The notes under the pieces are model-generated. The model was not told the origin of the DNA and did no database searches. It was given only the letters and a program-made list of their open reading frames with translations. Shown piece by piece: positions 12,795-39,252 of a DNA stretch of 39,252 nt; position 1 is the first letter of the stretch, and the number at the start of each line of letters is the position of its first letter. The translations under genes and the position numbers were made by a program. The stretch comes from a virus, in the IMG/VR virus record IMGVR_UViG_3300045988_083504. One strand, 5' to 3'.

Positions 12795-12927
12795 ATAGAA
12801 AGCCGTCTGAGTGCTGGAACACTCAGACGGCAAACGATACCACCAATCGCAATCACGACAAAGCCAAAGGAGGATCAACCACAGTATAGCACGATCCCCC
12901 TGGCGATGCAACAGGAGGAAAGGAAAA

Positions 12928-14010
12928 ATGGCGAAGAAAAGTAAATATGGCGTCCGCAAGGACGGCCTGCACGAGGCGATCCGCACCATCAACGGCAAGC
13001 GGGTAGCGTTCCGTGGCAAGACAGATCGGGAAATTGATCGTAAAATCCTGGAATACCAGATGGAGGCGGAGAAGGGCCGGAATTTCCCGGCAATCGCTGA
13101 CGAGTGGGAGCGGGAGCATGAGAGCGACGTGTCCGAATCGACCCGTCGGGTATACAGCTATGCCGTGAAGCGGCTGAAAGAGGCGTTTCCGGGGCGGGCG
13201 TCGGAGATCGAGCCGGTAGACGTGCGGAACTATATCAAGCGCTTTGAGGCACAAGGACGCAGCGCAAATAGCGTCGGCATTGAGCTGGCGGTCTGCCGGA
13301 TGATTTTTGCCCATGCCGTCATCAAGGGCGATATTCGGATTAGTCCGGCGGCGGAGGTGAAAAAAAGTCGGGGCCTGCCCTGCAAAAAGCGGGAGGCGCT
13401 AACGGAGGAGCAGGAGGAGGCCGTGAAAGCGGCGGGGCTGACAAAGGCGGCGCGCTGGTGGCTGTTTGGCTATCTGTTGTTGTACACCGGATGCCGCCGG
13501 GGTGAGGCGCTGGCGCTGACGTACCGCGACATCGACCGAAAAGCCGGGGTCATCCACATCACCAAGAAGGTTAGCTACGCCACAGGTACACCGGTGTTGG
13601 AGAATCACCTAAAGTCGGAGAACGGTCTGCGGGACATTCCCCTGCTTCCGCCTCTGGCGGAGGCGCTGCCGAAAAACCGGATCGGGCTGCTGTTTCCGGG
13701 GGATGATGGAGGCTATATGCGGCCCCATGAGATCACAAGAGAGTGGCGGCATTACTGCCGGGATGTGGGGCTGAACGAGATCCAGCAGGGCGAAAACGGC
13801 GAGACGGTGGAGACGTTCCCCATCACGCCGCACTGTTTCCGGCACAGCTTTGCGACGATCTGCTATGAGGCGGGGCTTGACCCCAGACAGGCGGCTGGCT
13901 TGCTGGGCGATACGCCGGACGTGGTGGAGGCGGTTTATACCCATCTGCGGCAGGACCGGAGGCAGACGGCAGCCGAAAAGCTGACGGCGTATTTTGAAGC
14001 TGTAAAGTAA
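12928..14010 (+). CDS. int: Tyrosine-type site-specific integrase (360 aa)
   Basis: ATG 12928 follows GGAGGAAAGG. Catalytic signature is YTGCRRGEALAL (Arg), HCFRHSFAT (H-x-x-R) and LLGDT...AVYTH (Tyr). Confidence 0.95.
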   Translation: MAKKSKYGVRKDGLHEAIRTINGKRVAFRGKTDREIDRKILEYQMEAEKGRNFPAIADEWEREHESDVSESTRRVYSYAVKRLKEAFPGRASEIEPVDVRNYIKRFEAQGRSANSVGIELAVCRMIFAHAVIKGDIRISPAAEVKKSRGLPCKKREALTEEQEEAVKAAGLTKAARWWLFGYLLLYTGCRRGEALALTYRDIDRKAGVIHITKKVSYATGTPVLENHLKSENGLRDIPLLPPLAEALPKNRIGLLFPGDDGGYMRPHEITREWRHYCRDVGLNEIQQGENGETVETFPITPHCFRHSFATICYEAGLDPRQAAGLLGDTPDVVEAVYTHLRQDRRQTAAEKLTAYFEAVK

Positions 14011-16254: not shown

Positions 16255-16283
16255 CCATGACATTTTGTGCATTTTTGTCATGG
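16255..16283. promoter_or_regulatory. Inverted-repeat operator (CCATGACA ... TGTCATGG) between the divergent promoters
   Basis: The 8-bp arms lie at 16255-16262 and 16276-16283. The half-site relates to the GTCATGG/CCATGAC repeat in the moron promoter. It overlaps the -35 (TGGACA 16281-16286) of the RHH promoter, whose -10 is TGTATAAT (16303-16310). Confidence 0.5.
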
Positions 16284-16335
16284 ACATGATTTGCGGCGAT
16301 TTTGTATAATGTATGGCAAGAAAGGCGGTGAAATA

Positions 16336-16512
16336 ATGGAGGAAAGAAAGCCAGATCGGCGGAATATATGGCAGAAAGAAAATCAAGAGCGCATCGTGGT
16401 AATGACGAGTAAGACAGAGCCACCAACCAAGGCCCAGATCAGAGCGGCAGCAGCCGCCGCAGGCCAGAGCGTCAACGCCTGGATCATTGAGGCCATCCGG
16501 GACAAGCTGTAA
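16336..16512 (+). CDS. Ribbon-helix-helix (Arc/CopG-like) regulator (58 aa)
   Basis: ATG 16336 has an AAGGCGGTG RBS. C-terminus AAAAAGQSVNAWIIEAIRDKL is typical of RHH proteins. It is divergent from the moron operon. Confidence 0.6.
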   Translation: MEERKPDRRNIWQKENQERIVVMTSKTEPPTKAQIRAAAAAAGQSVNAWIIEAIRDKL

Positions 16513-17381
16513 CGAGCGACAGAGCGTCGAGGGATAACACCCCCGGCGCTTTTCTCTTTGTATGCGGGGCGGCAGCAGCGGCAGCGGGGGCAGGGAGAGA
16601 GAGGGAAGGAGAGGGGGACTATAGGGGGAGAGAATAGCAGAGTGAGAGATGGGGGTGTATTCCCCCTACCCCAGAGAGATAAATATATATTTCTTACAGG
16701 GGGGTGTTATATATACTTCTACCGGGAGAGTAGCGGAAGAAAGAGACGCGGCGAATAAAAAACGCGAGAGAATGAGAGAAAACGAGAGCAAAACGGAGCA
16801 TTTGCGAGATATTCGGAGCTATTGTGAGATTAGGGCAATTACCCTTTTCGATTGAGATTTAAGGGGCCATTAAATATTTCCGTTGTGGCTGCTGGCTTTC
16901 GGCTGTTGCTGTGTCGATTCTGTGCATTTCCTCTTTCGGCCCGGGCAATTCCTGTTGTTGGCTCTGGCTGGTCGGGGCGATTAAGCAGCTCTGGTGCTGG
17001 GGCTGTAGTCTCTGCTGCTGGGGAGGCCCTACTACCAGGGATAGGAAGGGGGTGTACTAGGGGGTAGCGGAAAAACAGGGGGTGTCTCTCGCGCGGGGTA
17101 TAGGGCTATATACACACATCCCCTCTTCCCCTCCAAGAACTTGCAGTGCAGCTGCGGGAAGCTATGCCGGTGCTCCCTCTGGTGGGGGGTGGCGGAAAAA
17201 GGGGTGGGGGGATTTTCCGTTATAAATGCGAAAATGACTGAAACCCGTTGAATTGGCTTTGCCGGATATGCTTGAATGAAGGTGGCGGAGCAGATTCCGC
17301 CCACCTCCTGTTCAGGCCGGACATCCATTCATCATCCTTTCTCTCCCTACCCGGTGGGTGCGAATAGCCCACCGGGACCAT
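16513..17381 (+). other. Large non-coding region with extreme strand asymmetry and several strong hairpins (candidate large structured RNA and/or pac/late-promoter region)
   Basis: No ORF has an RBS or plausible composition. There is a 27-nt pure-purine run at 16592-16618 and an A-poor G+T block at about 16868-16965. Hairpins include GGTGGCGG...CCGCCCACC (17281-17305) and CCCGGTGGG...CCCACCGGG (17351-17377). Confidence 0.4.
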
Positions 17382-17456
17382 GGCCCTACAAGGCAGACGG
17401 GTTCTGGCAGATCATAGAAGCGCCGACCGCCGGTTCGATTCCGGCTGGGGCCACCA
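17382..17456 (+). tRNA. tRNA-like element A (acceptor stem, T arm and encoded CCA are canonical; D and anticodon arms could not be folded by eye)
   Basis: Acceptor GGCCCTA / TGGGGCC. T arm GCCGG-TTCGATT-CCGGC. 3-prime ACCA. The central 40 nt offers only TTCT/AGAA pairing, with a 10-nt loop. Confidence 0.45.
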
Positions 17457-17549
17457 TCCGGGGCAGGACAGTTCGTTGCTGGCAGCCGGGAAAGACCGGT
17501 GCAGCCCTCGCCACGCCTCTCGACGATGCGTACCATGGCGGGGACATTT

Positions 17550-17621
17550 GCAGACGTAGCTCAGTCGGTAGAGCACCGCGCCAGGAGGTATGCGCTGGTT
17601 CAAGCCCAGCCGTCTGCACCA
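17550..17621 (+). tRNA. tRNA-like element B (acceptor, D arm, T arm and encoded CCA are canonical; the anticodon arm is truncated or absent)
   Basis: Acceptor GCAGACG / CGTCTGC. D arm TA-GCTC-AGTCGGTA-GAGC. T arm GCTGG-TTCAAGC-CCAGC. 3-prime ACCA. Only 19 nt (ACCGCGCCAGGAGGTATGC) lie between the D and T arms. Confidence 0.5.
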
Positions 17622-17647
17622 GAATTTTTGTGAGAGGGGGCCGGGGT

Positions 17648-18181
17648 ATGGCTTATCAGAAGAAAAATCCAACTGCGGAAGAGCACAAGGCGCACATGGA
17701 CAACATGCACAAGAAAGCCGCCGCGGCTCACAGGAAACAGACGATCGAGAAGATCAAGGCGTTCCTGAAGAAATCCGAGGAATACTTTGACGTGCAGGAC
17801 CGGCTGGAGCAGGCATACAGCGAGGCGGGCCTTGCCAATGCGATGCGATGGACGGTTCAGCGGCTTCAGGGGTATTACGACTACAACGATGGCCGGGAGG
17901 CCGAGGCGGTCGAGGCGCAGGTGGAAGCCTTTGAAGCGGGCAATGAGGAGATCGACGATCCCCGCTGCGTTATGAGCTACTACGTGCGGCTGGCGTACCA
18001 GCGGATTCAGGAGCAGATCGACACCAGCCCCATCTACCAGGAAAAGGGCATGGTGACGCGAGGCATTTTCCTGAACAAGCAGAAGCGCCTGGGCGGCTAT
18101 CAGGACAAGCAGGAGACCCGCCAGGACATCAGCGTGAACGTGACCTTCGGGGACGGCGTGGACGCAAGCGACTTCAAGTGA
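17648..18181 (+). CDS. First late-operon protein (177 aa), function unknown; a small-terminase role is suggested by position only
   Basis: ATG 17648 follows GAGAGGGGG. The protein is helical and charged (MAYQKKNPTAEEHKAHMDNMHKK...). Confidence 0.6.
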   Translation: MAYQKKNPTAEEHKAHMDNMHKKAAAAHRKQTIEKIKAFLKKSEEYFDVQDRLEQAYSEAGLANAMRWTVQRLQGYYDYNDGREAEAVEAQVEAFEAGNEEIDDPRCVMSYYVRLAYQRIQEQIDTSPIYQEKGMVTRGIFLNKQKRLGGYQDKQETRQDISVNVTFGDGVDASDFK

Positions 18182-20517: not shown

Positions 20518-21570
20518 ATGGCTATCAACTACGCAATTAAGTACGCAACCAAGATCGCGGAGCGCTTCAAGAAAGCCTCCATTACCGCCGATGACTGCGG
20601 CAACAGCTATTCCTGGCTGAATCCCAACAGCCGCACCATCCGCATCGGCAGCGTGAACACCGTTCCCGAGACCCAGTACACCCGCAGCGGCTCCAACCGT
20701 TTCGGTGAGGTCCATGACGTGGGCGACACCCTCCAGGAGATGACCTGCGAGATGCAGCCCGCCTTCTCCTTCACCATCGACGCGCTGGATCAGACCGATC
20801 AGGCCATCCAGAAGTCCGCAGGCAGCGCTCTGCGCCGCCAGCTGGACGAGGTGACCATCCCCGGCATGGACAAGCACCGCATCAAAAAGTGGGTCATGGG
20901 CGCCAACATCGCCGTCAAGGAGGCTACCGCTCCCACCAAGGCCACCATCGGCGGGCTCATCATCGACCTGAACGCGAAGATGACCGACGCGCTGGTGCCT
21001 CTGGAGGGCCGCACCCTCTACATCGCCACCGAGTACTACAAGCTGCTCAAGCAGATGCCTGATTACATCGGCGTGGACGCTCTGGGCAAGGAGGCTCTGG
21101 CAAAGGGCGTTGTGGGCGAGTTCGACGGCTGCCGCGTGAAGCCCATCCCCACCAGCTACATGCCCGCCGGTGTGTACTTCTTCATCAAGCACAAGGGCTG
21201 CACCGTGGACCCTGTGAAGCTCCAGAAGTACAACATCCTGACCGAGGTGCAGGGCTATTCCGGCCCCGTGGTGCAGGGCGTGACCTACTATGACAGCTTC
21301 GTGCTGGGCGCCAAGGGCGACGGTGTTGCCGTCTGCGGCAACGCTGCGGTTCTGGCGGCACCCGTGATGTCTATCACCGGCCACGCCGTCAGCATCACCG
21401 CCGTGTCCGGCGTGGTGTTCAAGTACACCACCGACGGAACCAACCCCCGGTACTCCTCCACCGCCGAGGTCTACACCGCCGCTGTGACTCTGACCGCCGG
21501 TCAGACCATGCGGGCCGTGGCCACCAAGGACGGCTGCGTGGGCATCGAGGGCACCAAGGATTACGAGTGA
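20518..21570 (+). CDS. Major capsid protein with a C-terminal Ig-like (chitobiase/hexosaminidase-C-type) decoration domain (350 aa)
   Basis: Assigned from position and size. The C-terminal ~70 aa, FKYTTDGTNPRYSSTAEVYTAAVTLTAGQTMRAVATKDG, matches the Y-T-x-D-G-x-x-P Ig-like domain pattern. Confidence 0.75.
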   Translation: MAINYAIKYATKIAERFKKASITADDCGNSYSWLNPNSRTIRIGSVNTVPETQYTRSGSNRFGEVHDVGDTLQEMTCEMQPAFSFTIDALDQTDQAIQKSAGSALRRQLDEVTIPGMDKHRIKKWVMGANIAVKEATAPTKATIGGLIIDLNAKMTDALVPLEGRTLYIATEYYKLLKQMPDYIGVDALGKEALAKGVVGEFDGCRVKPIPTSYMPAGVYFFIKHKGCTVDPVKLQKYNILTEVQGYSGPVVQGVTYYDSFVLGAKGDGVAVCGNAAVLAAPVMSITGHAVSITAVSGVVFKYTTDGTNPRYSSTAEVYTAAVTLTAGQTMRAVATKDGCVGIEGTKDYE

Positions 21571-21660: not shown

Positions 21661-23046
21661 ATGCCTCGATATAAACAAGCAGCAGGCGGAACGGTGCAGG
21701 TGGATTTGGGGACGCTGAACCCTAAACAGAAGAAGTTCTGCCAGTCCCGGAGCCGATACACGGCTTACGGCGGCGCCAGAGGCGGCGGCAAGACACACGT
21801 TCTGCTGCGGAAGGCGGCAGGCGGCGCGCTCACCTACCCCGGCATCAAGATCCTGATCGTGCGCCGGGAGTACCCAGAATTGGAGCAGAACATCATTCTG
21901 CCCATGCAAAAGCTGATCCCGCCGGAGGTGGGCAGCTACAACGGCAGTATGCGCATGATGTTCTTCTGCAACGGCAGCATTATCAAGTTCGGGCACTACG
22001 GCGCGGGAGACGATCAGGAATATCAGGGCCTTGAATTTGACTGGATCTTCATGGAGGAGGCCACTCAGTTCTCGGAATCCCAGTTCCGCACACTGGGCGC
22101 GTGTTTGCGTGGCGCGACCAAGTTCCCCCGGCGGATGTACCTGACCTGCAACCCCGGCGGCATCGGCCACCTGTGGGTAAAGCGGCTGTTTGTGGACCGG
22201 GAGTACCGGGAGGGGGAAAAGGCCAAGGATTACACCTTCATCCCCGCTACGGTGGACGATAACCCCCAGCTTTTGGAAGCGTCCCCGGAGTACAAGCAAA
22301 TGCTAGACCTGCTGCCGGAGGATGTACGGCGGGCGTGGCGCTACGGTGACTGGAACGCCATGGCAGGCACGTTCTTCCCGGAGTTCCGCAAAGAAACCCA
22401 TGTGATCGCGCCTTTTGTACGGGTGCCCCGGGAGTGGAAGAAGTACCGGGCGTTCGACTACGGCCTTGATATGTTCGCCTGCCTTTGGGTGGCGGTGGAC
22501 TTTGAGGGGCGGGCCTATGTGTACCGGGAGGTACAGCAAAGTGGATTGATCGTCAGCGAGGCGGCAAAGCTGGCAAATGCCCTGACCCCGCCGGAGGAGC
22601 ACATTGAGTTCACCATTGCCCCGCCGGATATGTGGAACCGGCAGAAGGACAGCGGGCGGAGCATGGCGGAGATCTTCGCACAGAACGGGTTAGGGCTGCT
22701 GAAAGCCAGCAACAACCGCGTTCAGGGCTGGATGGCCGTCAAGGAGCTGCTGAAGCCCATGAAGAGCGACACGGACCGGCCCGGACTGCTGGTGACGGAA
22801 AACTGTGTGGGCCTGATCCGCAACCTGCCATCCATCCAGCATGACGAGAAAAACCCCTCGGACTGCGCCACGGAACCCCACGAGATCACCCATATCTGCG
22901 ACGCTGCCCGGTATTTCTGTGTCACCCGCGTTCTGGGCGCTCAGAAAACCGTGGAGAAGATCGTGGACGATTTCGACGAGGGCGAGGACTACGATGACGT
23001 GATGACGGGCGGGGAGATGACCGCCGATTATCTATCCTACGGATAA
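21661..23046 (+). CDS. terL: Terminase large subunit (461 aa)
   Basis: Walker A YGGARGGGKTH, Walker B-like DWIFMEEA, and a C-terminal nuclease-type region. AAGGAG RBS. Confidence 0.95.
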   Translation: MPRYKQAAGGTVQVDLGTLNPKQKKFCQSRSRYTAYGGARGGGKTHVLLRKAAGGALTYPGIKILIVRREYPELEQNIILPMQKLIPPEVGSYNGSMRMMFFCNGSIIKFGHYGAGDDQEYQGLEFDWIFMEEATQFSESQFRTLGACLRGATKFPRRMYLTCNPGGIGHLWVKRLFVDREYREGEKAKDYTFIPATVDDNPQLLEASPEYKQMLDLLPEDVRRAWRYGDWNAMAGTFFPEFRKETHVIAPFVRVPREWKKYRAFDYGLDMFACLWVAVDFEGRAYVYREVQQSGLIVSEAAKLANALTPPEEHIEFTIAPPDMWNRQKDSGRSMAEIFAQNGLGLLKASNNRVQGWMAVKELLKPMKSDTDRPGLLVTENCVGLIRNLPSIQHDEKNPSDCATEPHEITHICDAARYFCVTRVLGAQKTVEKIVDDFDEGEDYDDVMTGGEMTADYLSYG

Positions 23047-24920: not shown

Positions 24921-26588
24921 ATGAGCAAACAGACGATGACCCCGGAGCGGGTCGGCAAGGAATACAACGCGGGCATCAGCTTCAACAGCGGCATTGACCT
25001 CTATGACTGCGTGGAAACCAACGAGAATTTCTTCATTGGTAAGCAGTGGGAGGGGGTCCAGAGCAACGGCCTCCCTACCCCCGTATTCAACTTCCTGAAG
25101 CGGGTGGTGCTGTTCTCCGTGGCGAATATCTCCACGGACAATCTGAAGCTGTGGGCGCGGGCCATGTCCTCCAGCGGGAAGCGGAACACGCAGACCCTGG
25201 AGCTGGTGGCCGACATTCTCAACGATCAGTTCGCGTCCATCTTTGAGCACAACAGCATCGGCGGGCGCATCCGGGAGTATACCCGCAACGCTGCCGTGGA
25301 CGGTGACGGCTGTATGTATACCTACTGGGACGATACGGCGGAGACCGGGCAGGCCAGCAAGGGCGCCATCCGAACGGAAGTCCTGATGAACACGCAGGTT
25401 TTGTTCGGCAACCCCAACAACCGGGACGTGCAGAGCCAGCCTTACATCATTCTGGAGCGGCGGATGCTGCTGAGTGAGGCCCGGAAGCGGGCCAAGCGGT
25501 ACGGCAAGGACCCGGACGAGATCCAGCCGGACAACAAGGACTGCGGCAACAACTACATGGATTCCATGAGCGGCAGCGGGAACAAGGTGACGGTGCTGCT
25601 CCGGCTGTGGAAGGATGACGAGACCGGCACCGTCCACGCCTACGAGTGCACCCGGCAGGCGGAGATCCGGGGCGATCTGGACCTCGGTATCAAGCTGTAT
25701 CCCATGACGTGGATGAACTGGGACTATGTGCAGGACTGCTATCACGGACAGGCCATGATTACCGGCCTGCTACCCAACCAGATCTTCGTCAATAAGCTGT
25801 TTGCCATGTCCATGATCTCGTTGATGACGCTGGCCTATCCGAAGGTGGTATACGATTCCACCAAGGTAGCCAAGTGGACGAACAAGATCGGCGGGGCTAT
25901 TCCGGTAAACGGCAGTGTGGAGGGCGTGGCGAAGATCATTGACCCCGCCAGCATCTCCCCACAGATCAGCCAGTTTATTGACATTGCCATCAGCTATACG
26001 CAGAAGTTCCTCGGCGCATCGGACGTGGCGCTGGGCGATACCAGACCGGACAACACCTCCGCCATTATCGCCTTGCAGCGGGCGGCGGCAACGCCTATGG
26101 AGCTGACGAAGCAGAACCTTTTGCAGAGCATTGAGGATCTGGGCCGCATCTACATGGAGTTCATGGGCGAATACTACGGGGAACGGTATGTGGAAATCTC
26201 CAACCCCTATGACAGCAGCAAACTGGTGGTTCCCTTTGATTTCTCCATCCTGAAGGAGATTCCCTTCACCATCGGACTGGATGCGGGCGCGGCCTCCTAC
26301 TGGAGCGAAATCGCCGCCATGCAAACCCTTGATAACCTGCTGATGCAGGGCAAGATCTCCACGGTGGAATATCTGAAACGGCTGCCCGCCGGACAGATCA
26401 CCGACAAGGAGGCGCTGATCCAAGCCCTCCAGCAGCAGGAACGTGCCATGATGGGTGGTCAGCCGGGAGCAGAGGGCGAACAGCCTGTTACCGAAGAGGA
26501 AGCCGTCCCCATTCGGGGCGGGGCCGGATACGGCCAGTTGCAGCGGAAAATCAACGAGACCGGCGAAGTGCCGAAAACGGAGGTGTAA
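24921..26588 (+). CDS. Portal protein (555 aa)
   Basis: Assigned from size and position. Portal-like blocks are NENFFIGKQW, LLPNQIFVNKL and GASDVALGDTRPDNTSAIIALQRAAATPMEL. Confidence 0.8.
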   Translation: MSKQTMTPERVGKEYNAGISFNSGIDLYDCVETNENFFIGKQWEGVQSNGLPTPVFNFLKRVVLFSVANISTDNLKLWARAMSSSGKRNTQTLELVADILNDQFASIFEHNSIGGRIREYTRNAAVDGDGCMYTYWDDTAETGQASKGAIRTEVLMNTQVLFGNPNNRDVQSQPYIILERRMLLSEARKRAKRYGKDPDEIQPDNKDCGNNYMDSMSGSGNKVTVLLRLWKDDETGTVHAYECTRQAEIRGDLDLGIKLYPMTWMNWDYVQDCYHGQAMITGLLPNQIFVNKLFAMSMISLMTLAYPKVVYDSTKVAKWTNKIGGAIPVNGSVEGVAKIIDPASISPQISQFIDIAISYTQKFLGASDVALGDTRPDNTSAIIALQRAAATPMELTKQNLLQSIEDLGRIYMEFMGEYYGERYVEISNPYDSSKLVVPFDFSILKEIPFTIGLDAGAASYWSEIAAMQTLDNLLMQGKISTVEYLKRLPAGQITDKEALIQALQQQERAMMGGQPGAEGEQPVTEEEAVPIRGGAGYGQLQRKINETGEVPKTEV

Positions 26589-26591
26589 CCT

Positions 26592-28469
26592 GTGGCGATT
26601 GAGAAATTCAACAAAAATATGGCGATCATTGCGGCATTGGACGATGAACCCAATGACGTAGGCGGTATGACCTCCGCCGAGCTGAAAAACAAGTTCGACG
26701 AGGGCGGCAAGGCTATTCAGTCCTACATGAACGAGACCCTGATCCCGGCGCTGGAAAATCTGGGTGTGGAAACGGCGGTGCTGCTGCCGCAGAACGAAGC
26801 CGGGTTCAAGTACATCCGCCTGAACAGCGATAAGGTGCTGGAGGTCAGCACGGACGGCAAGGCCTGGCAGGCAACCGGTTCTTCCGGACACCTGATTATC
26901 GGCCCGGACGGACAGGCCCTCCCCCAGCGGAGCCGGATGCAGTTCACCAACGGCACGGTGACGGATCAGAACGGCGTGACCGTGGTCACCGGCATAAAAG
27001 GTGACAAGGGCGAAAAAGGCGACAAGGGCGATACCGGCGAGACCGGAGCCACCGGCGCACAGGGTCCGGTGGGACCCGCCATCGTCCCCAGCGTGGACAT
27101 TAACGGCGTCATGTCCTTCTCCCTGCAAAATGTAACGTCCCCGCCCCAGAGCGTGAATGTGCGCGGCCCCCAAGGCCCGCAGGGCGTACAGGGTGAGCAG
27201 GGCGCACAGGGCGCAAGAGGCCCGCAGGGTATCCAGGGCGTGGCCGGTGCGCAGGGGCCCAAAGGAGACCAGGGTGAGACCGGTCCTGCCGGTCCTACCG
27301 GCCCGCAGGGGCCGACCGGATTGCAGGGCGTTCAGGGTATTCAGGGCGAGACCGGCCCCAAAGGCGCACCCGGCGACAAGGGTGAAACCGGACCCGCAGG
27401 CCCCCAAGGCCCCACCGGCGCACAAGGCCCAACCGGCGCTCCCGGCAAGGACGGAACCAGCCTCTACATTGAGGACGTCTATCCCACTCTGGCGGCGCTG
27501 CGAAAAGCTATCCCCACCGGCAACGAGAAGATGTACATGGTGGAGGCGGACAAGGAGTGCTATATCTGGTCCGAGCTTGCTTCAGACTGGGTAAGCGTTG
27601 GCAAGCTGCAAGGCCCGGAAGGCCCGCAAGGCCCCGCCGGTGCACAGGGCATCCAAGGCCCCAAGGGCGAAAAGGGCGACAAGGGTGACATTGGCCCACA
27701 GGGCGAGCAGGGCATCCAAGGCCCCACCGGTCCCCAGGGTGAGACGGGTGCCAAGGGCGCGACGGGTCCCCAGGGTCCGCAGGGTATCCAGGGCGTACAG
27801 GGTCCCCAGGGCGACGTTGGCCCGGAAGGCCCGCAAGGCCCCGCCGGTGTGAAGGGCACGGACGGCAAGAGCGCGTATCAGACCGCCGTGGAAGCCGGTT
27901 ATTCCGGCACGGAGACGGCGTTCAACACGGCGCTGAAAGAGGTGCCGGGGCATATCGCCAACGATGACATCCACGTGACCGCTGAACAGAAAACCGCGTG
28001 GAACGGCAAGGCGGCGGGGAAACACGCCAGCCAGCATAAGACCGGGGGCAGTGACCCCATTACACCGGGGGACATCGGAGCCATTGCATCTACGGCAAAG
28101 GGCACGGCGGACGGCGTGGCGTCTCTGGGCGCGGACGGCAAGGTGCCTGCAAGCCAGCTGCCGGAAATTTCCTCCGTCAAGACCTACACCGCCACCATCG
28201 GCACCACATGGACGGAGGACAGAAACACCGGCGTCAAGACGCAGAGCGTTGCCATCGCCGGTGTCAAGGCCACCAACACCGCCACGGTAGACCACGTTTA
28301 CACGGGGGCCGGGACCTCCGACGATTACGCGGCCTTCGTGGAGGCGGAGAACCAGTATCTCAACTGTATCACCAACGGCTACGCCGAAACCTACAACGGC
28401 GGCATCAAGTTTACGATCTTCGGGGATGCCAACACGGTTGCGATCCCCATTGTTGCGGAGGTGAGCTGA
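26592..28469 (+). CDS. Collagen-like tail fibre protein (625 aa, GTG start)
   Basis: GGAGGTG lies before GTG 26592. Three Gly-X-Y blocks occur at about aa 135-163, 192-288 and 341-424. Confidence 0.85.
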
Positions 28470-32329: not shown

Positions 32330-34372
32330 ATGGCCGGATATTACGATAAAAACAAGGACTACTCCAAGGAGCTTCAACGAACGGACCTCTCCGCCTCCGA
32401 ACGGGACAGGCTGACCAAGGAGCGGCAGAACAAGATCGACGATAAGTACGGCGGCAGAGAGCCCAACATGATCGGTTCCGACAAGACGTACAGCCAGACC
32501 TATGACAAGGGCGGCAACCGGCGGGACAACGGCAGCTCCGGCGGCAGCAGCAAAGGCAGCTACGGTGGCATTGAGTATGACCGTAGCAACAACGGCGGCG
32601 GCATTTACGGGATGCCCTCCAGCAATTCCGAGGTGAAAAACTACGAGCAGGGCGGCGTGACCTATCAGGTAGGCGCGGACATGAGCCGACGTCAGGATCT
32701 GGCAGGCCGTGCGCAGGTGTCCAACGGCTATACCGTGTTCTATGACGATGACGGATACGCCTACAAGGCCGTGAAGGGCGTGGCGGACTACACCCCCCAT
32801 CAGGACATCAACGCCGGGAACGGCAATTACGGCAAAAGCGGCGCGTGGACAGACAACGAAATGCTGTCCGCACTGGACCGCTCTAAGATCCAGGACATCC
32901 GCAACCGGCTCCAGCGGGGCGAGATCACCGGCGATCAGGCGAACCAGGCGGCAAACGCCATCCGGGCCGGGTACGGCTACACCATCGACAAGAACGGCTA
33001 TGTGACGGACAGCGGCGCTCTTTCTTCCGTGAACGATCTGCGGCGGCGGCTGGGGCTTGACAACAGCCCGGAAAGCGCAGAGCTGGCCTACTACCGGTAT
33101 CTCATGGGAACGGACACCTCCCCCTCCGCACAGGCCAGCGGCAAGGTGCAGTCTTTCGGGGACTATCTGGCGGAGAATGGCGGCGTACAGGCGGGCAGTC
33201 AGCAGAGGGTCACGGACATTAACGCAGGCAGCACCCCGACGAGCAATTTCACGGCGCAGGCCGGAACGAGCTTTGACATCGGGGACGGCAACGACTATCT
33301 GAAAGAGCTGTACGCCAAGAAAGTAGCGGCGGAGCTGGCGGCGCTGAAATCCGCCTACGAGCAGAACACCGCCACGCTGGATGCCAGCCGTGCGCAGATC
33401 GCGCCGGTGTATGACATTGCCCGGAACAGCGCGGCCAACCAGAACGCCTTGAGCCGGGGAGCATTTCAGGAGATGGCGGTGGCAAACGGCCTGAACACCG
33501 GCACCACCGGACAGGCGGCTCTGGCACAGGATGTTGTGCTTCAGCAGAACCTCTCCCAGATTGACCGGGAGCAGGCGGAAAAGACGGCGGCTATCGACCT
33601 TCAGCGGAGCCAACTTGACACGGAGTACCGGAACGCCATTGCCAAGGCAGAGGCAACGGGAGACGCGGAGCTGGCAAACGCCCTGTATGAGGAATACGTC
33701 CGCCAGCAGAATCTCTACGCCAAGTATGGCGGGCAGACCGGCGGCTCCGGCTCCGGTTCTTCCGGCGGCAGTACCGTGGTAAAGCCGACGCTGACTGCCA
33801 GTCAGGTACAGTCCGCCCTGAAAAACGGCATCGTGACGGATGACGTGATCTCCGCCTTTGATTACTACTACGGGCAGGGGGCCTATGATTCCCTGTACGG
33901 CACCGGCAGGTTGACGGCGGGGACAACCGGCACTGCCAAAACCGGCAGCAGCAGCACCGGCCGAAAGAAGGGAAGCTACTCCAACGGCTCTCTGACCAAT
34001 GAGCAGGTGAAGCAGCTCCAGAAATACTACGGCGTGACCGCTGACGGCAAGTGGGGCACCAACTCCAAGAAGGCCGCAGGCGGCCTGACGGCTGACAAAG
34101 CATGGGCGAAGTATCAGGGGACTAATAAAACCGCCACCAAGACCAACAGCGCAGGCGTGAAGGCCACCGGCACCAATTACGCTACCATTGCCAAGAACTC
34201 CGCTGCGGGTGTATATGGACCCAGATATGGCGCGGAGATGAACAAGCTCCAAGCCATGTTCTCCCGTGGGGCCAACAACGCGCAGCTTGCCACTGAAGTC
34301 AAGCGGGCCATGCAGGCCGGTGAGATCAACGAAGCGGGAGCAGAAACCTTTGGAGCCCTATTTGGGTGGTAA
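32330..34372 (+). CDS. Large Gly/Ser/Asn/Gln-rich virion (ejection?) protein with C-terminal peptidoglycan-binding-like repeat (680 aa)
   Basis: AAGGAGG RBS. The centre is coiled-coil-like. LTNEQVKQLQKYYGVTADGKWGTNSKKAAGG (about 33990-34100) resembles PG_binding_1. Confidence 0.7.
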   Translation: MAGYYDKNKDYSKELQRTDLSASERDRLTKERQNKIDDKYGGREPNMIGSDKTYSQTYDKGGNRRDNGSSGGSSKGSYGGIEYDRSNNGGGIYGMPSSNSEVKNYEQGGVTYQVGADMSRRQDLAGRAQVSNGYTVFYDDDGYAYKAVKGVADYTPHQDINAGNGNYGKSGAWTDNEMLSALDRSKIQDIRNRLQRGEITGDQANQAANAIRAGYGYTIDKNGYVTDSGALSSVNDLRRRLGLDNSPESAELAYYRYLMGTDTSPSAQASGKVQSFGDYLAENGGVQAGSQQRVTDINAGSTPTSNFTAQAGTSFDIGDGNDYLKELYAKKVAAELAALKSAYEQNTATLDASRAQIAPVYDIARNSAANQNALSRGAFQEMAVANGLNTGTTGQAALAQDVVLQQNLSQIDREQAEKTAAIDLQRSQLDTEYRNAIAKAEATGDAELANALYEEYVRQQNLYAKYGGQTGGSGSGSSGGSTVVKPTLTASQVQSALKNGIVTDDVISAFDYYYGQGAYDSLYGTGRLTAGTTGTAKTGSSSTGRKKGSYSNGSLTNEQVKQLQKYYGVTADGKWGTNSKKAAGGLTADKAWAKYQGTNKTATKTNSAGVKATGTNYATIAKNSAAGVYGPRYGAEMNKLQAMFSRGANNAQLATEVKRAMQAGEINEAGAETFGALFGW

Positions 34373-34384
34373 CCAGGAGGAACT

Positions 34385-37300
34385 ATGAGCAGTATTGAAG
34401 ATCGTCTGAACGCGGTGATCCGGAGCGGGGGCACATCGACCCCGGCTCCGGCTCAGACTGCCAAGAAAGCGGCGCCCAACTCCATTTCCGAGCGCCTCGA
34501 CAAGGTGATCGCGTCCGGGAAGGGGCAGCCGTCCGTCTACAAGGCACCTACTTCCACCACCAAAGCCAGCACCAGCAAGAATCAGTGGGTGTCCACCGGC
34601 GGGGGGCGGAAAAGCACCACGGACGCCGGAAAGAAGCAGGGCTTTGTGGCAGACCCCAGCCGCGCCCAAAACAATGCGTCCAGCCGCGTCAAAAACATTG
34701 TGACCGGTGCAACGAAGTCCGCCGGTTCCGCCTTTACGAATCTGGGCGGTGTGCTGGCAGAGGGGGCCGGGTATCTGAACACCCGCATTGCCAACAACAA
34801 TGCCGCCGGGGAGCAGATGGGGGCCATTCAGGCCATCAAGGACTACAATACCATGCTCCGGAACGGCAAATGGGCGGACGGCAAGGCGCTGACAGCGGAT
34901 GATCGGAAGAAAATTCGGACCTACATCGCCGCCAACCAGCGGAAGATCGATGCCCATAAGAATTATACCCGGTCTGTGGAAAAGAGCGACAAGGCAGTTG
35001 CGGACAAGGCGTATCAGAAGGCGGACCGGCTGTCCAAAAGCTCCGCTGCGGATGTGGCACAGGCCAAGAAAGGGCTGGGGCCGGTAGGCCAGTTCGCCGT
35101 GGATCTTGGCGTTCAGGGCGTACAGATGGCGGGGGACGTAGCGGCCAGCGCCATGATCCCCGGAGCCGGTCTTGCCCTGATGACGGCCCGGTCTGCCGGA
35201 AGCAGCGCTCAACGGGCCAGACAGTCCGGGGCCAACTACAATCAGCAGCTTGCCTACGGACTGGGCAGCGGCGCTCTGAGCCTTGCCACGGAGAAGATCA
35301 GCAACGTGGCAAGCCCCTTCAAGAAGGCGTTCGGCGGCGGTGTTCTGGACAACGCCATCAGCGGTGCGCTTTCCAAGCTGAACAACAGCTCGGCGGGCCG
35401 TGTGGCCCTCTCCATGATCTCCGAGGGCGGTGAGGAATTTATCGAGGATATTTTCCAGCCCATCTTGCAGCGGGCCACCTATGACCCCTCTGCCCGGTTC
35501 GATCTCAGCGAGGCACTGTATGACGCGGCGGTGGGCGCGGCCATGGGCGGCATTGGCGCAGGCGTTGACGTCATCCGACAGCGTGGAAGCAGTCAGGCGG
35601 ACGCACAGCCCACGCAGGAGGTACGCCCGGAGGTGCGGGAGGGTATTGATACTCCCACCCCCGCAAACGCCGCAGAGGGCACGCAAAACGCCGCCCCCAG
35701 TGTGGAGACGGCGGCAAACAAGGGCGAGACAGTTCAGATCGTTGAACGACTGCGAGAGAGTATACCGGGGCTTAACGGCACAGAGCCGGTCTCGACCGTA
35801 TCCTCCAAAGCGATCCCATTTGTCGAGGGCCGAACCATGGCTGAAAAGGCAAGGAAAATGTTTGAGGCCATTAAGGGGGTCGTGTCTCGACCCGGCTTTG
35901 GAGACATTGACATCAACGGGCGTTCCGTGAAGGACGATTTGAGCCATGGCGTAGGCGCGGCAAAAGCCGCCGTGATCCCCGCCATTCCGGAAGTGCTCCG
36001 GCGCGGGCAGCAAATTGATTTCCAGCAGAATTGGAAAGGCCGCCCTTATGACGGCTATGTATTTGCCGCCCCGGTCACTATGGACGGCGAAACTGCTTAT
36101 GTAGCTGCCGTTGTAAAGCGCACCAGCAAAAACCGATTTTATCTGCATGAAGTGATTGACGCGAACGGGAACGTTATAAAAATAGACGCCGGAGATCGTG
36201 CCAATCCAACCAGCCTTGCCACCAATGGTGACGCTGGGACACAATCTCAGGCGTCTGTTGAGGGTACGCGTCCCCTCAATGCTAATGATAGCATAGCACA
36301 GGGGGCGGAAAATGTCAAGAATGGTGGAAGCCGGGACATTCTCTCTGAGGTTCTGTTTGGGAAGAAGCGGGCGGACCTGAATACCATGACGGAGGCCCAG
36401 CAGGACGCCGTTTTCCGGGCTAATGAGGAGGGCACCGTGGGCATGGATGCCACCGGCAAGGTGTTCCAGATCGACCCGGAGCAGCACATCGACCGGCGGC
36501 GGATGGAGACGGTGGGCGGCAGAGACGTGAACGCCTTCCAGTTTGACCACCCCGAGCTGCACCGCTATTATCAGGAAGCGGCCAACGCCCTGATCGCAGA
36601 TGCGGACCTCTCCCTCCAGCAGCCCATGAGCCGCCGTTATGAGCGGACCATGGAGGGTAACGCTGTCCAGCAGGCGGCGCAGACCTCGCCCCATCTGCGA
36701 CAGGCCATGGATGAAACTGGGCTTTCCCGTGACGCCATCATCGACGCAGCCCAGCGGATCATCACCGATCAGGGGCAGGAGAACGTGGCGGCGGCCAAGC
36801 GGGTGGAGCTGATTCTGGACGATATGCTCTCCCACGGCTACACCACCATGACCGGCGAACAAGTGGGACCCAACAGCGGGTATCTCACCGCCAAGCAGAG
36901 CATTTTGGGCGCGGGCGAGCAGGCGCGGGGCCGTGGCTTAGAGGATGTGGATGCTTTCGACACGCCGGGTGACGCCGTGGCGGGTGCGGTGAACACGCCC
37001 TTTGACACCATGCAGGCCAAGAGTGAGGAGTTTTACCCAGTGAATCCCAACAGCGCCCAGCGCATTCAGGCAGAACAGCGGCGGGCGCCCTCTGAGGTCC
37101 CCGTTGTGAACCCTGATACCGGGCGGAATGTGGAGAAAACGGTCTCCACCATTCTGAACAGCCCCTTGACCTCCCCGGAGATGGCAACTGTGTATGAAAA
37201 CGCCATTTCCGGCGGCGCGTTCGACTATGACGTGGTGACGGACCGGGATGCCGTGCAGCAGGCGCAGGCCAAGATCTCGCGGGACGGCTGGCGAGAGGTG

Positions 37301-39252
37301 GCGAACAGTTTCGTTGCCAAGGCGGAGCTGGGGCAGCGGATCACCAAGGCGGACACCGCCGAGGCCATCAGCGCCTACAACCTCGCCATTTCCGAAGGAG
37401 ACCACAAGGCCGCCTTTGAGCTGGCAACGGCCATTGCGGACGCGGCCCATGACAGCGCACAGATGGTGCAGGCCATGAACCTGATGAACCGGCTGACGCC
37501 GGAGGGGCGTCTGCTGACGCTGCGGCGGCTGGTAGACCGGATGAATGACCGGGCGGCACGGCAGAACCGGGCACCCAGGCAGAGCACCGCCGACAGCGGA
37601 GACGTGGAAAGCGCACGGGTGGACTACATCGACAAGGTGACGGGCTTCACCCTCTCTGACGAGCTGGCCACCAACTACCTGATGGCAGAGACGGACGCGG
37701 AGCGGGCGGCGGCGTGGGATGCCATTACCACCTCCATTGCAGACCAGATCCCCAGCACCTTCATGGAGAAGGCCAATTTCTGGCGGTACACCTCCATGCT
37801 GACTAACCCCACCACCCACATCCGCAACATCATGGGCAACGCCATTCAGATGGGTGCACGGAAGATCAAGAACGGCATCGGAACCGCAATCGAGCGGGCA
37901 GTCATCAAGGACCCCTCTCAGCGGACAAAGGCCGTGAATGTTGACAAGGATCTGAAAGCCTTTGCCAAGGTCCAGTATGAGACGGACCAGAGCGCGGCCA
38001 TGGGCAGCGGGAAGTATTCTGACGCAACGGCGGCAGGCATTGAGCGCGAGATTCAGAGCAAGCGGAAAATGTTCAATGGGGAGGATGTTCTTTCCCGTGC
38101 CGTGCAGGGCATCGGAGATTTGAACAGCCGCGCCCTTGACTATGAGGACGTGATCTTTAACCGTGCGGCTTATGTAGACAGCTTCGCCCAGGCGCTGCAA
38201 GCTAAGGGCGTGACGGCGGCAGAGGCCCACGCGGGGACCAGAGCCGCAGACGTAGAGGCGGCACGGGCCTACGCCATTGAGGAAGCGCAGAAGGCCACTT
38301 ACCGCAACACCACGGCGCTTTCCGAGGCGCTGTCTCAGTTTGGCCGCTATGAGGGGGATAACCCGGTAAAACGGGCAGGTTCCTTCGTGGCGGACGCTCT
38401 GTTCCCCTTCCGCAAGACCCCGGCCAACATCCTGACCACGGGCCTTGATTACAGCCCTGTTGGCATTGCAAAGAGTGTGAAGGAAGCTCTTTGGGATGTG
38501 CGGAGAGGCAACTGCACGGCGGCGGACGCCGTGGATTCCCTTGCATCCGGCCTCACCGGAACCGGCATTTTCGCGCTGGGCGCTTATCTGGCGGCGGAGG
38601 GGCTGCTCCACGTCCGGACTGGTGACGATGACAAGGAAGAAGCCTTTGAGAAGTCCATGGGCGGGCAGGATTATGCTATTCAGATCGGGGACAAGTCCTA
38701 CACGCTGGACTGGGCGCTTCCTGCGGCAATGCCCCTGTTTGCGGGCGCTGCCACCGAAAAATCCCATGAAAAGGGCGGCAGCACCTTCGACGCGCTGGTG
38801 GATTCTCTGCTGGGGATGCAGGACGTTGTGCTGGAGACCTCCATGCTGTCCTCCCTGAATGACCTGATCTCCTATTGGAGCTACGCCGACAACAAGGTTG
38901 GCTATCTGCTCGACCGGGCGGCCAGCAGCTACGCCGGACAGTATATCCCCACCATCGGCAGCAAGGTTGCGTCCGTATTTGATGATACGGTGCGCAAAAG
39001 CTATGTGGAAAAGGGCACAGGGCAGCTTTCCTCCGATGTGAATTACTTCTTGCAGGGGGCGGCGAAGAAGGTGCCGGGGGCACGGAATCAGTTACAGCCG
39101 TCTATCGATCTGTGGGGCAACGAGGTCTCCAACGGCTCCGCGCCGGAGCGGGTGTTCCAGTCCTTCATATCCCCCGGCTTCCTGAAAGCGCAGGACAACA
39201 GCCCCGCCACGCAAGAGATTCGGCGGCTTGCGAAGGCCACCGGGAAAAGCGG
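34385..39252 (+). CDS. 5-prime 1622 codons of the giant ~1806-aa internal-virion / polyvalent-type protein (continues at 1-608)
   Basis: AGGAGGAACT precedes ATG 34385. I translated the frame by eye to the window end and saw no stop. It is absent from the ORF track because it has no stop in the window. The segment at 35830-36190 resembles a BECR-type nuclease module. Confidence 0.85.
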   Translation, partial: MSSIEDRLNAVIRSGGTSTPAPAQTAKKAAPNSISERLDKVIASGKGQPSVYKAPTSTTKASTSKNQWVSTGGGRKSTTDAGKKQGFVADPSRAQNNASSRVKNIVTGATKSAGSAFTNLGGVLAEGAGYLNTRIANNNAAGEQMGAIQAIKDYNTMLRNGKWADGKALTADDRKKIRTYIAANQRKIDAHKNYTRSVEKSDKAVADKAYQKADRLSKSSAADVAQAKKGLGPVGQFAVDLGVQGVQMAGDVAASAMIPGAGLALMTARSAGSSAQRARQSGANYNQQLAYGLGSGALSLATEKISNVASPFKKAFGGGVLDNAISGALSKLNNSSAGRVALSMISEGGEEFIEDIFQPILQRATYDPSARFDLSEALYDAAVGAAMGGIGAGVDVIRQRGSSQADAQPTQEVRPEVREGIDTPTPANAAEGTQNAAPSVETAANKGETVQIVERLRESIPGLNGTEPVSTVSSKAIPFVEGRTMAEKARKMFEAIKGVVSRPGFGDIDINGRSVKDDLSHGVGAAKAAVIPAIPEVLRRGQQIDFQQNWKGRPYDGYVFAAPVTMDGETAYVAAVVKRTSKNRFYLHEVIDANGNVIKIDAGDRANPTSLATNGDAGTQSQASVEGTRPLNANDSIAQGAENVKNGGSRDILSEVLFGKKRADLNTMTEAQQDAVFRANEEGTVGMDATGKVFQIDPEQHIDRRRMETVGGRDVNAFQFDHPELHRYYQEAANALIADADLSLQQPMSRRYERTMEGNAVQQAAQTSPHLRQAMDETGLSRDAIIDAAQRIITDQGQENVAAAKRVELILDDMLSHGYTTMTGEQVGPNSGYLTAKQSILGAGEQARGRGLEDVDAFDTPGDAVAGAVNTPFDTMQAKSEEFYPVNPNSAQRIQAEQRRAPSEVPVVNPDTGRNVEKTVSTILNSPLTSPEMATVYENAISGGAFDYDVVTDRDAVQQAQAKISRDGWREVANSFVAKAELGQRITKADTAEAISAYNLAISEGDHKAAFELATAIADAAHDSAQMVQAMNLMNRLTPEGRLLTLRRLVDRMNDRAARQNRAPRQSTADSGDVESARVDYIDKVTGFTLSDELATNYLMAETDAERAAAWDAITTSIADQIPSTFMEKANFWRYTSMLTNPTTHIRNIMGNAIQMGARKIKNGIGTAIERAVIKDPSQRTKAVNVDKDLKAFAKVQYETDQSAAMGSGKYSDATAAGIEREIQSKRKMFNGEDVLSRAVQGIGDLNSRALDYEDVIFNRAAYVDSFAQALQAKGVTAAEAHAGTRAADVEAARAYAIEEAQKATYRNTTALSEALSQFGRYEGDNPVKRAGSFVADALFPFRKTPANILTTGLDYSPVGIAKSVKEALWDVRRGNCTAADAVDSLASGLTGTGIFALGAYLAAEGLLHVRTGDDDKEEAFEKSMGGQDYAIQIGDKSYTLDWALPAAMPLFAGAATEKSHEKGGSTFDALVDSLLGMQDVVLETSMLSSLNDLISYWSYADNKVGYLLDRAASSYAGQYIPTIGSKVASVFDDTVRKSYVEKGTGQLSSDVNYFLQGAAKKVPGARNQLQPSIDLWGNEVSNGSAPERVFQSFISPGFLKAQDNSPATQEIRRLAKATGKS
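39198..39252. repeat. Second copy of the 55-bp terminal overlap (identical to 1-55)
   Basis: Exact identity read directly from the sequence. Confidence 0.95.

Follow-up and report, generated by a model that had tools for sequence, protein, structure and literature searches.

What is the function of a gene-free gap of 1.1 kb that lies between a small ribbon-helix-helix-type (RHH) gene and the first late gene of a gut phage? The gap occupies positions 16513-17647 of IMG/VR virus record IMGVR_UViG_3300045988_083504, whose full 39,252 nucleotides are referred to here as the window. An earlier note, made from the sequence alone, had proposed it as a candidate large structured RNA in the manner of GOLLD and ROOL, with embedded tRNA-like elements, and had named a pac/cos plus late-promoter region as the alternative. 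Our analysis indicates that the gap is best described as a composite of a terminator, a 5' non-coding block and a 3' small-RNA cassette, and not as one ornate RNA. The explanation that accounts best for the whole, and to which we assign an even chance, is that the terminator of the RHH gene is followed by putative cis-acting DNA close to the probable small terminase gene (terS), and then by an accessory cassette that may supply an RNA antitoxin mimic against the abortive-infection toxin AbiF. The cassette holds the following elements:

17507-17543, plus strand: RNA hairpin of the abiF class (Rfam RF03085), an orphan present as a single copy.
17382-17456, plus strand: tRNA-like element 1, with acceptor stem, T arm and encoded CCA intact and the D and anticodon region replaced.
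17550-17621, plus strand: tRNA-like element 2, with acceptor, D and T arms and encoded CCA, beginning 6 nt after the abiF hairpin.

The abiF hairpin, which the earlier note had overlooked, scored 41.9 bits against a gathering score of 37 (E 1.7e-4 over the window), and its alignment covered model positions 1-37 of 37. It has the architecture of the family, consisting of an outer 6-bp and an inner 3-bp stem and the conserved 11-nt loop CUCUC(A/G)ACGAU. Among 27 distinct hairpin-plus-scaffold units drawn from several phage families, the outer stem occurred in five fully complementary versions, the inner stem switched from CAC/GUG to CGC/GCG, and the 11-nt loop was invariant. Covariation within the hairpin reached 0.210, compared to 0.106 in shuffled alignments (none of 500 reached the observed value) and 0.03-0.07 in slid controls, indicating that the structure covaries.

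RNAs bearing the abiF motif bind AbiF, an RNase toxin of the HEPN type, block its active site and neutralise it (PMC12373285, PMC12737573, PMC13064643), with neutralisation having been demonstrated for RCd22 and PbAbiFr only (PMC12373285, PMC12737573). Among abortive-infection toxins AbiF is common, and it has been proposed as the ancestor of Cas13 (PMC12165695, PMC12737573). The genomic context of such a system is absent from this locus, where the next gene is probable terS and not abiF/Abi_2, a circumstance that leaves membership in the RNA family unaffected. No Abi_2 domain was found in the 35 open reading frames (ORFs) of the window that were scanned. For comparison, viral contig L156 from the same gut data set carries an abiF RNA of 46.9 bits located 20 nt upstream of an Abi_2 gene, which encodes a 296-aa protein with an Abi_2 domain scoring 196 bits. 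Compensatory changes in the stems and two further bases are all that distinguishes the hairpins of L156 and the window, and a tblastn search of the window with the L156 AbiF protein gave no match.

The two tRNA-like elements listed in the earlier note lie on either side of this hairpin and are present as Rfam tRNA matches (17382-17453 and 17550-17618). At 21.1 bits, element 1 falls short of the threshold of 29, and the alignment takes in its acceptor stem and T arm only. Its slot is occupied by a real tRNA-Asn(GTT) of 64-69 bits in most relatives, and the variant seen here was found in only two other viral contigs. Element 2 scored 51.2 bits with the tRNA model (RF00005), above the same threshold, and displayed a cloverleaf-like fold with covariation in the T arm. 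In place of the 17-nt anticodon arm, it contains the 13-nt CCGCGCCAGGAGG, and 9 nt are aligned at a point for which the model expects 13. ARAGORN called no tRNA in the window, at neither of the two elements, and, judged from their sequences, both are incapable of decoding.

Comparison among relatives of this phage demonstrated that position 17383 is a recombination border, 3' of which they carry different modules. All of these modules end in ...CCAGAA before the ribosome-binding site of the late gene, and the breakpoints coincide with tRNA ends, so that the cassette is accessory and swappable. Among the 31 distinct intergenic sequences of the family, just 12 contain the abiF unit.

A similar arrangement recurs in other phages. 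The hairpin lies 5-6 nt before the scaffold of tRNA-like element 2 in 49 viral contigs, and the canonical 15-mer of the Rfam consensus was found in at least 120 viral contigs, with the full hairpin in 74. In about 20 of the 120 contigs with the 15-mer, an ordinary tRNA is located just downstream on the same strand, at 18-23 nt from the end of the 15-mer to the start of the tRNA, corresponding to an estimated gap of about 4-9 nt between hairpin and tRNA. These tRNAs are mostly tRNA-Arg(UCU), with Asp, Gln and Tyr also represented, and in three further contigs with the 15-mer the hairpin directly follows a tRNA. Toxin genes are rare in this setting. Just one of 25 ORFs of at least 200 aa within 1.2 kb downstream encodes Abi_2, one more partial AbiF was detected by tblastn, and the 74 viral contigs with the full hairpin have one or two AbiF genes nearby in total.

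The pattern extends to cultured phages. In Mycobacterium phage Bromden (NC_053510.1, 66598-66634; L272:1503-1539), an unannotated abiF RNA of 40.5 bits is separated by 7 nt from the preceding tRNA-Gly and by 4 nt from the tRNA-Lys that follows, and in Synechococcus cyanophage S-SRM01 (MW015081.1, about 184077-184113; L273:1511-1547) an unannotated abiF RNA of 49.3 bits lies 5 nt before a tRNA. The abiF RNA family is itself known, but its orphan, tRNA-embedded use in phages appears to be undescribed in the literature searched.

The hairpin thus belongs to the abiF motif, has a covarying structure, lacks a toxin gene in its genome, recurs beside tRNAs and is distributed as an accessory element. 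Given that its neighbours elsewhere are ordinary tRNAs of several isotypes, what stays constant is the pairing of an AbiF-antitoxin hairpin with a substrate of RNase P, of whatever kind, in a genome without the toxin, and an antitoxin mimic is the simplest reading. We tentatively propose, with somewhat less than even confidence, that abiF hairpins within phage tRNA arrays are a widespread form of counter-defence, excised by RNase P and RNase Z and silencing AbiF/Abi_2, with the flanking tRNAs reduced to handles in the window. The cassette would be transcribed along with the late operon. RNase P would cut at the 5' end of tRNA-like element 2 (17549/17550) and tRNA 3'-end processing would cut after tRNA-like element 1 (about 17456), the two cuts together setting free a short RNA bearing the hairpin. 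The freed hairpin would bind an AbiF (an Abi_2 protein and HEPN RNase) of the host or of a resident prophage in the manner of its own antitoxin RNA, and would keep it silent while the infection shuts off or outlasts the antitoxin of the cell. The tRNA-like flanks, devoid of decoding capacity, may serve as processing or stability handles. Transcription, processing, binding to AbiF and benefit to the phage are steps that we infer.

Several points weigh against this proposal. The motif is single-copy in the window, and RCd22 of Clostridioides difficile needs two motifs (PMC12373285), an objection that is offset by the finding that PbAbiF binds one RNA per monomer (PMC12737573). A cognate AbiF in the presumed Dysosmobacter-like host is putative, and if the cassette is transcribed only with the late genes, the decoy might come too late. 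Element 1, a rare variant, may be no more than a decayed tRNA, and the inner stem of the hairpin is weakened in four relatives (L052-L055).

These last two features also favor a different explanation, which we consider unlikely, namely that the hairpin is a mere leader, spacer or stability element of a pre-tRNA, or the inert relic of a lost AbiF module, next to tRNA-like elements in decay. It is consistent with this explanation that the hairpin always adjoins the 5' end of a tRNA, as expected of a processing element, that another hairpin (hairpin 2, described below) likewise adjoins the first tRNA slot, and that one relative has an 8-nt deletion in the rare element 1. However, its loop sequence matches the one that hairpins tied to real Abi_2 genes conserve, and such RNAs bind AbiF (PMC12373285). 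Unrelated phage families have kept the hairpin, with compensatory changes, which points to selection, and the scaffold of element 2 covaries in its T arm and is found in several phage families with an identical central arm that is not of tRNA type.

The remaining 5' portion of the gap raises a separate question. Its features, together with the terminator and gene that precede it and the gene that follows the cassette, are these:

16281-16310: sigma-70-like promoter upstream of the RHH gene, TGGACA-18-TATAAT, from a promoter scan.
16336-16512, plus strand: small RHH-type gene, an ORF matching phrog_13890.
16522-16559, plus strand: intrinsic-terminator-like hairpin of 11 pairs with a T-run, invariant in 38 of 38 aligned genomes, with helix 1 paired in 100%.
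16560-17380: lineage-specific conserved non-coding block upstream of probable terS.
16586-16628, plus strand: purine tract able to form a G-quadruplex, containing a 27-nt purine run and the box GGGGGACTATAGGGGG.
16650-16720: hypervariable AT-rich module with a palindrome centered near 16686 (alignment columns 190-300; inverted repeats I5, I8 and I14).
16761-16835: tandem array of approximately 10-nt units led by GAG(A/G), roughly one unit per helical turn.
17064-17109, plus strand: bipartite box GTAGCGGAAAAA-N21-GGTATAGG (right part also given as GGTATAGGGCTAT), the most conserved part of the block.
17281-17305, plus strand: hairpin 1, bulged, with one pair exchanged between GC and AU (23 versus 15 sequences) and an outer stem that is not kept.
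17350-17376, plus strand: hairpin 2, an invariant 9-bp GC stem with a variable loop, 5 nt before the first tRNA slot.
17639-18181, plus strand: first late gene, probable small terminase subunit (terS).

The hairpin and T-run at 16522-16559, missed by the earlier note, close the RHH transcript. The sequence features reported for the gap and its non-coding nature were borne out. The uninterrupted 27-nt purine run at 16592-16618 is the longest in the 39-kb genome, where the runner-up measures 16 nt, and purines make up 83.5% of the purine-dominated segment 16565-16655, a value that no other segment of its size in the genome exceeds. Segment 16868-16965, described as almost A-free, is indeed depleted (9 A in 98 nt, compared to 22% genome-wide), but the wording was somewhat overstated and the stretch is not unique, with 275 window positions equally low or lower. 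The repeated GTAGCGGAA boxes are present as GTAGCGGAAGAA at 16730, GTAGCGGAAAAA at 17064 and GTGGCGGAAAAA at 17189, and both GC hairpins were found, the first with a bulge at 17281-17305 and the second with 9 bp at 17350-17376. Hairpin 2 forms the left border of the swappable cassette and, because it has no T-run, is not a classical terminator.

Of the 110 distinct gap runs in an alignment of the block with 37 relatives, only 21 had a length divisible by three; repeat numbers changed and modules were swapped, in agreement with the earlier statement that the gap contains no credible ORF. Protein-coding potential is ruled out by this indel pattern and by the lack of conservation of the ORFs, and the 301-aa ORF at 17276-18181 is an artefact, an open frame that crosses the variable cassette.

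Block 16560-17380 is 75-93% identical across about 40 related gut-phage genomes, with ultra-conserved islands interspersed among variable patches, and a pattern search of IMG/VR with its core motif returned matches in this phage family alone. The purine tract 16586-16628 is one of four matches to the G-quadruplex consensus in the whole genome. Its box GGGGGACTATAGGGGG (16613-16628) occurs in 26 of 31 family sequences and also in the distant relatives L270, L271 and L268, and the box GGGGGA-N-TATAGGGGG is likewise shared with lineages in which the downstream protein has diverged. A perfect purine mirror repeat, AGGGAGAGAGAGGGA (16592-16606), lies within the 27-nt run and overlaps the G-quadruplex consensus; a triplex (H-DNA) is possible there in principle. 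The AT-rich module exists in three alternative repeat-bearing versions among relatives. In the GAG-led array, unit starts are 8-11 nt apart with a column identity of 0.89-0.93, and the segment measures 37, 45, 47 or 55 nt among relatives, indicating that whole units are gained and lost. Column identity rises to 0.97-0.99 in the bipartite box, whose half-sites are both located at an identical offset in L270/L271, the small terminase (TerS) of which is 42% identical. The spacer of the box is 21 nt in 55 of 62 metagenome matches despite divergent spacer sequences, and the ordered motifs of the block as a whole are common to relatives with TerS at this same 42% identity.

On the minus strand at 1980-1998, GCGCGGAAACAGGGGGTGT nearly repeats the left half of the box (17067-17085), with 0.00 chance matches in shuffles; it sits between a terminator and the ribosome-binding site of the minus-strand gene 1360-1953 and may mark a co-regulated gene. 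Separately, GGGGGTGT is enriched in the genome, with 10 matches compared to 1.7 expected, but we dropped it as a specific site and do not treat it as a defined element because it is also present in ordinary terminator hairpins. Two of the ten matches are supplied by a symmetrical hairpin at 606-645, AACACCCCCGCCAGACGGCGGGGGTGTT, which lies between two plus-strand ORFs and resembles a bidirectional terminator.

Based on these features, block 16560-17380 is probably cis-acting DNA for late-operon control, packaging recognition or both, and is perhaps also transcribed as a leader, the tandem array and the fixed-spacing box being putative protein-binding sites for late-promoter control and/or pac recognition. 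Among distant relatives the terS-like gene is still preceded by the gene-free gap, with the tRNAs elsewhere in the late operon, which indicates that the block belongs with probable terS and the start of the late operon and not with the tRNAs. Short phased repeats that vary in copy number, half-sites at fixed spacing and a position directly upstream of probable terS are all features of the pac type. The pac/cos and late-promoter alternative of the earlier note is the better-supported, if putative, reading for the 5' 0.85 kb.

On the other side, the promoter scan found no sigma-70 promoter consensus on the plus strand inside the block, and a weak fold signal on that strand (z -1.96) leaves room for some RNA role. 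The DNA-control role is one that we infer. The identity of the neighboring gene adds a further reservation. The protein encoded at 17639-18181 had no Pfam or PHROG match of its own, and sequence and profile searches of the PDB, as well as a Foldseek search with its AlphaFold model, returned nothing significant. Its homologs at 40-46% identity (E about 1e-25) exceed the cut-off of GP3_package, the Pfam family of the P22 small terminase (34 bits, cut-off 29.4), and the protein is probably a small terminase subunit on the strength of these weak hits in homologs.

The large-RNA proposal, in which the 1.1 kb or its 0.85-kb 5' block would be one structured RNA of a new class with its 3' end cut by RNase P at the adjoining tRNA or tRNA-like element, now appears improbable. 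The block is conserved though non-coding, has the orientation of the late genes and is directly followed by a tRNA slot. The plus-strand fold just cited was not equalled in stability by any of 20 shuffles, compared with z -0.42 for the minus strand, and a few local hairpins have compensatory changes. However, no large-RNA family, GOLLD, ROOL, HEARO and OLE included, matched at gathering scores over the window, where Rfam gave only the tRNA and abiF RNA matches, or even at E<=10 between 16100 and 17800. In an RNAalifold consensus of the 0.87-kb 5' block from 38 sequences, 17 pairs had changed on both sides, compared to 19.2 in column shuffles and 8-13 in slid controls. Counted by cells, 115 compared to 56 had changed on both sides, a measure inflated by relatedness, and the test is limited in power because the sequences are only 7-25% diverged. 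The variation is mostly between GC and GU pairs joining purine and pyrimidine tracts, and the gain and loss of units and the swapping of modules would break the predicted long-range helices. The tRNA context behind the ornate-RNA idea also dissolves in distant relatives, where the motifs of the block remain beside terS with no adjoining tRNA. What stands of the proposal is that the region is non-coding and that it contains covarying structured elements, located in its 3' quarter; a single GOLLD/ROOL-like RNA is unlikely.

For the cassette, it is also conceivable, if quite improbable, that activity resides in tRNA-like element 2 and its variants, with the hairpin playing a secondary part, and that these elements act as decoys or replacements against tRNA-targeting defences or as an unusual tRNA, for example a frameshift-reading one. 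In other phages the scaffold of element 2 bears different central arms that are themselves conserved (CCGCNCCNGGAGG, CGGACUUCGUGAGCCG and one that is Gly-CCC-like), and tRNAs carried by phages are known to work against defences that cleave tRNA (PMC11555353, PMC10802454). Against this, the form in the window has no anticodon stem-loop and cannot replace a cleaved tRNA, and elsewhere the identical hairpin adjoins ordinary tRNAs of several isotypes.

Other contents of the cassette slot are recorded here in their own right. Units with the central arm CGGACUUCGUGAGCCG and an 8-10-nt loop on the scaffold (L003, L002, L005, L008 and similar; the L073/L074/L080/L083 cassette) are called by ARAGORN as 'tRNA-???' or Thr(cgt), and chimeras with a tRNA-Asn acceptor stem occur; a frameshift-reading tRNA or a decoy is possible. 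The slot of relatives also holds two non-coding modules of about 290 and 330-400 nt, which start with GCCGGGTCGCGCCCGG..CAATGTGAGACCGTT or TGTATGCTACCGCATTGCGGCACC and both end with GCAATGCCGTACCAGAA (L065:3355-4000, L075:3705-3980, L084:3090-3270, L091:3620-3975 and L001:3115-3480). One of the two was also found 3' of a tRNA-like element in an unrelated fecal phage. The cassette modules of relatives had no Rfam match apart from a sole weak YrlA match of 26 bits, and the two modules may be new phage RNA families. In a distant relative, a Tad2-like (PF11195) gene lies among the late genes (L270:4838-5290), an indication that phages of this group generally use the region after terS as a slot for anti-defence genes.

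A non-coding region between early and late genes serves as the origin in the lactococcal phage c2, which requires a non-coding transcript. The 5' block might likewise be a replication origin, with priming by an R-loop or by a transcript that is G-rich and untranslated. This is suggested by G-clusters on the non-template strand, an AT-rich palindromic module with alternative sets of iteron-like repeats, a location between the early and late gene blocks and a genome in which neither an initiator nor a primase or helicase was recognised, but, judged from sequence and by analogy, it is very unlikely, as a weak helicase-loader-like gene and recombination genes reside in the leftward early operon, the usual origin location, and the block accompanies terS in distant relatives.

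The whole stretch is a complete temperate phage genome of 39.2 kb, assembled as a circle with a 55-bp terminal overlap, and for this reason the assembly carries no information on packaging termini. The setting is as follows:

12811-14010: integrase, with two helix-turn-helix regulators close by.
Minus strand: early genes, among them SSB, RusA, an exonuclease and a PAPS-reductase-like gene.
Plus strand: late genes, with the major capsid protein at 20518, large terminase at 21661, a P22-like portal at 24921, holin and endolysin.

IMG/VR holds about 50 close relatives, one of them binned with a Dysosmobacter metagenome-assembled genome, and a Dysosmobacter-like bacterium is the presumed host. A nucleotide search and a capsid-protein search of the phage collection found no close cultured relative. 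Elsewhere in the genome, the 625-aa late protein encoded at 26592-28469, probably a fibre, contains five stretches of collagen triple-helix repeats (Pfam Collagen, 120 bits). Two very long minus-strand ORFs of 834 and 609 aa at 34358-38767 have no Pfam match and an atypical pattern of GC by codon position; they may be genuine genes with a tail or host-interaction function, or artefacts of the antisense strand.

How phages evade AbiF is largely unknown, apart from one cos-site hairpin of phage sk1 that is reported to inhibit it (PMC13064643). If the tRNA-embedded hairpins are decoys, they would constitute the second known case of antitoxin-RNA mimicry by phages and the first in which tRNA processing releases the RNA. 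Engineered tRNA-flanked guide-RNA arrays exist, and the cassette in the window would be a natural counterpart. The decoy idea would also explain some of the 'odd' tRNA-like genes in phage genomes. The tRNA-embedded abiF hairpins range from phages of gut Clostridia to mycobacteriophage Bromden and cyanophage S-SRM01. For annotation, the locus advises caution, in that long, compositionally odd intergenic blocks beside tRNAs need not be single ornate RNAs.

Compared with known systems, the gap resembles GOLLD and ROOL loci (PMC5737381) in its phage context, its tRNA neighbour and its long non-coding stretch. It differs from them in that the block has no covariance-model match at the thresholds used and no clear support for a multi-helix structure and separates from tRNAs in distant relatives. 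With pac and late-promoter regions, the block shares its non-coding nature, a location directly upstream of probable terS, phased short repeats and a bipartite box of fixed spacing. Examples upstream of small-terminase genes are SPP1 pac and P1 pac, with phased short repeats, whereas in P22 pac lies inside gene 3. The block is much longer (about 0.8 kb) than the characterised pac sites. Like the tRNA arrays and anti-defence tRNAs of phages (PMC11555353, PMC10802454), the cassette is swappable and accessory and occupies the place of the tRNAs (Asn, Trp, Ser) of relatives, but both of its tRNA-like elements fail as decoding tRNAs. Cyanophage S-CREM1 (PMC9964418) likewise has an Rfam abiF match in its genome, with the toxin undiscussed; that report lists the match only and mentions neither tRNA adjacency nor an orphan pattern nor a decoy role.

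The same two-stem hairpin and 11-nt loop define the abiF RNA antitoxins (RF03085), including RCd22 of C. difficile and AbiFr of Prevotellaceae. In those type III systems a terminator and the ribosome-binding site of the toxin follow the RNA, whereas the hairpin in the window is a single copy placed between tRNA-like elements in a phage without an abiF gene anywhere. A functional precedent is phage PhiTE, which evades ToxIN by means of pseudo-ToxI, a mimic of the antitoxin RNA (PMC3475682). Both are phage-borne type III antitoxin motifs without a toxin gene, and by analogy both would act by keeping the toxin bound during infection. The proposed mimic in the window differs from pseudo-ToxI in that the target would be the HEPN toxin AbiF instead of ToxN, the motif is a single hairpin instead of a repeat array, and its release is proposed to depend on tRNA-processing enzymes and not on the toxin.

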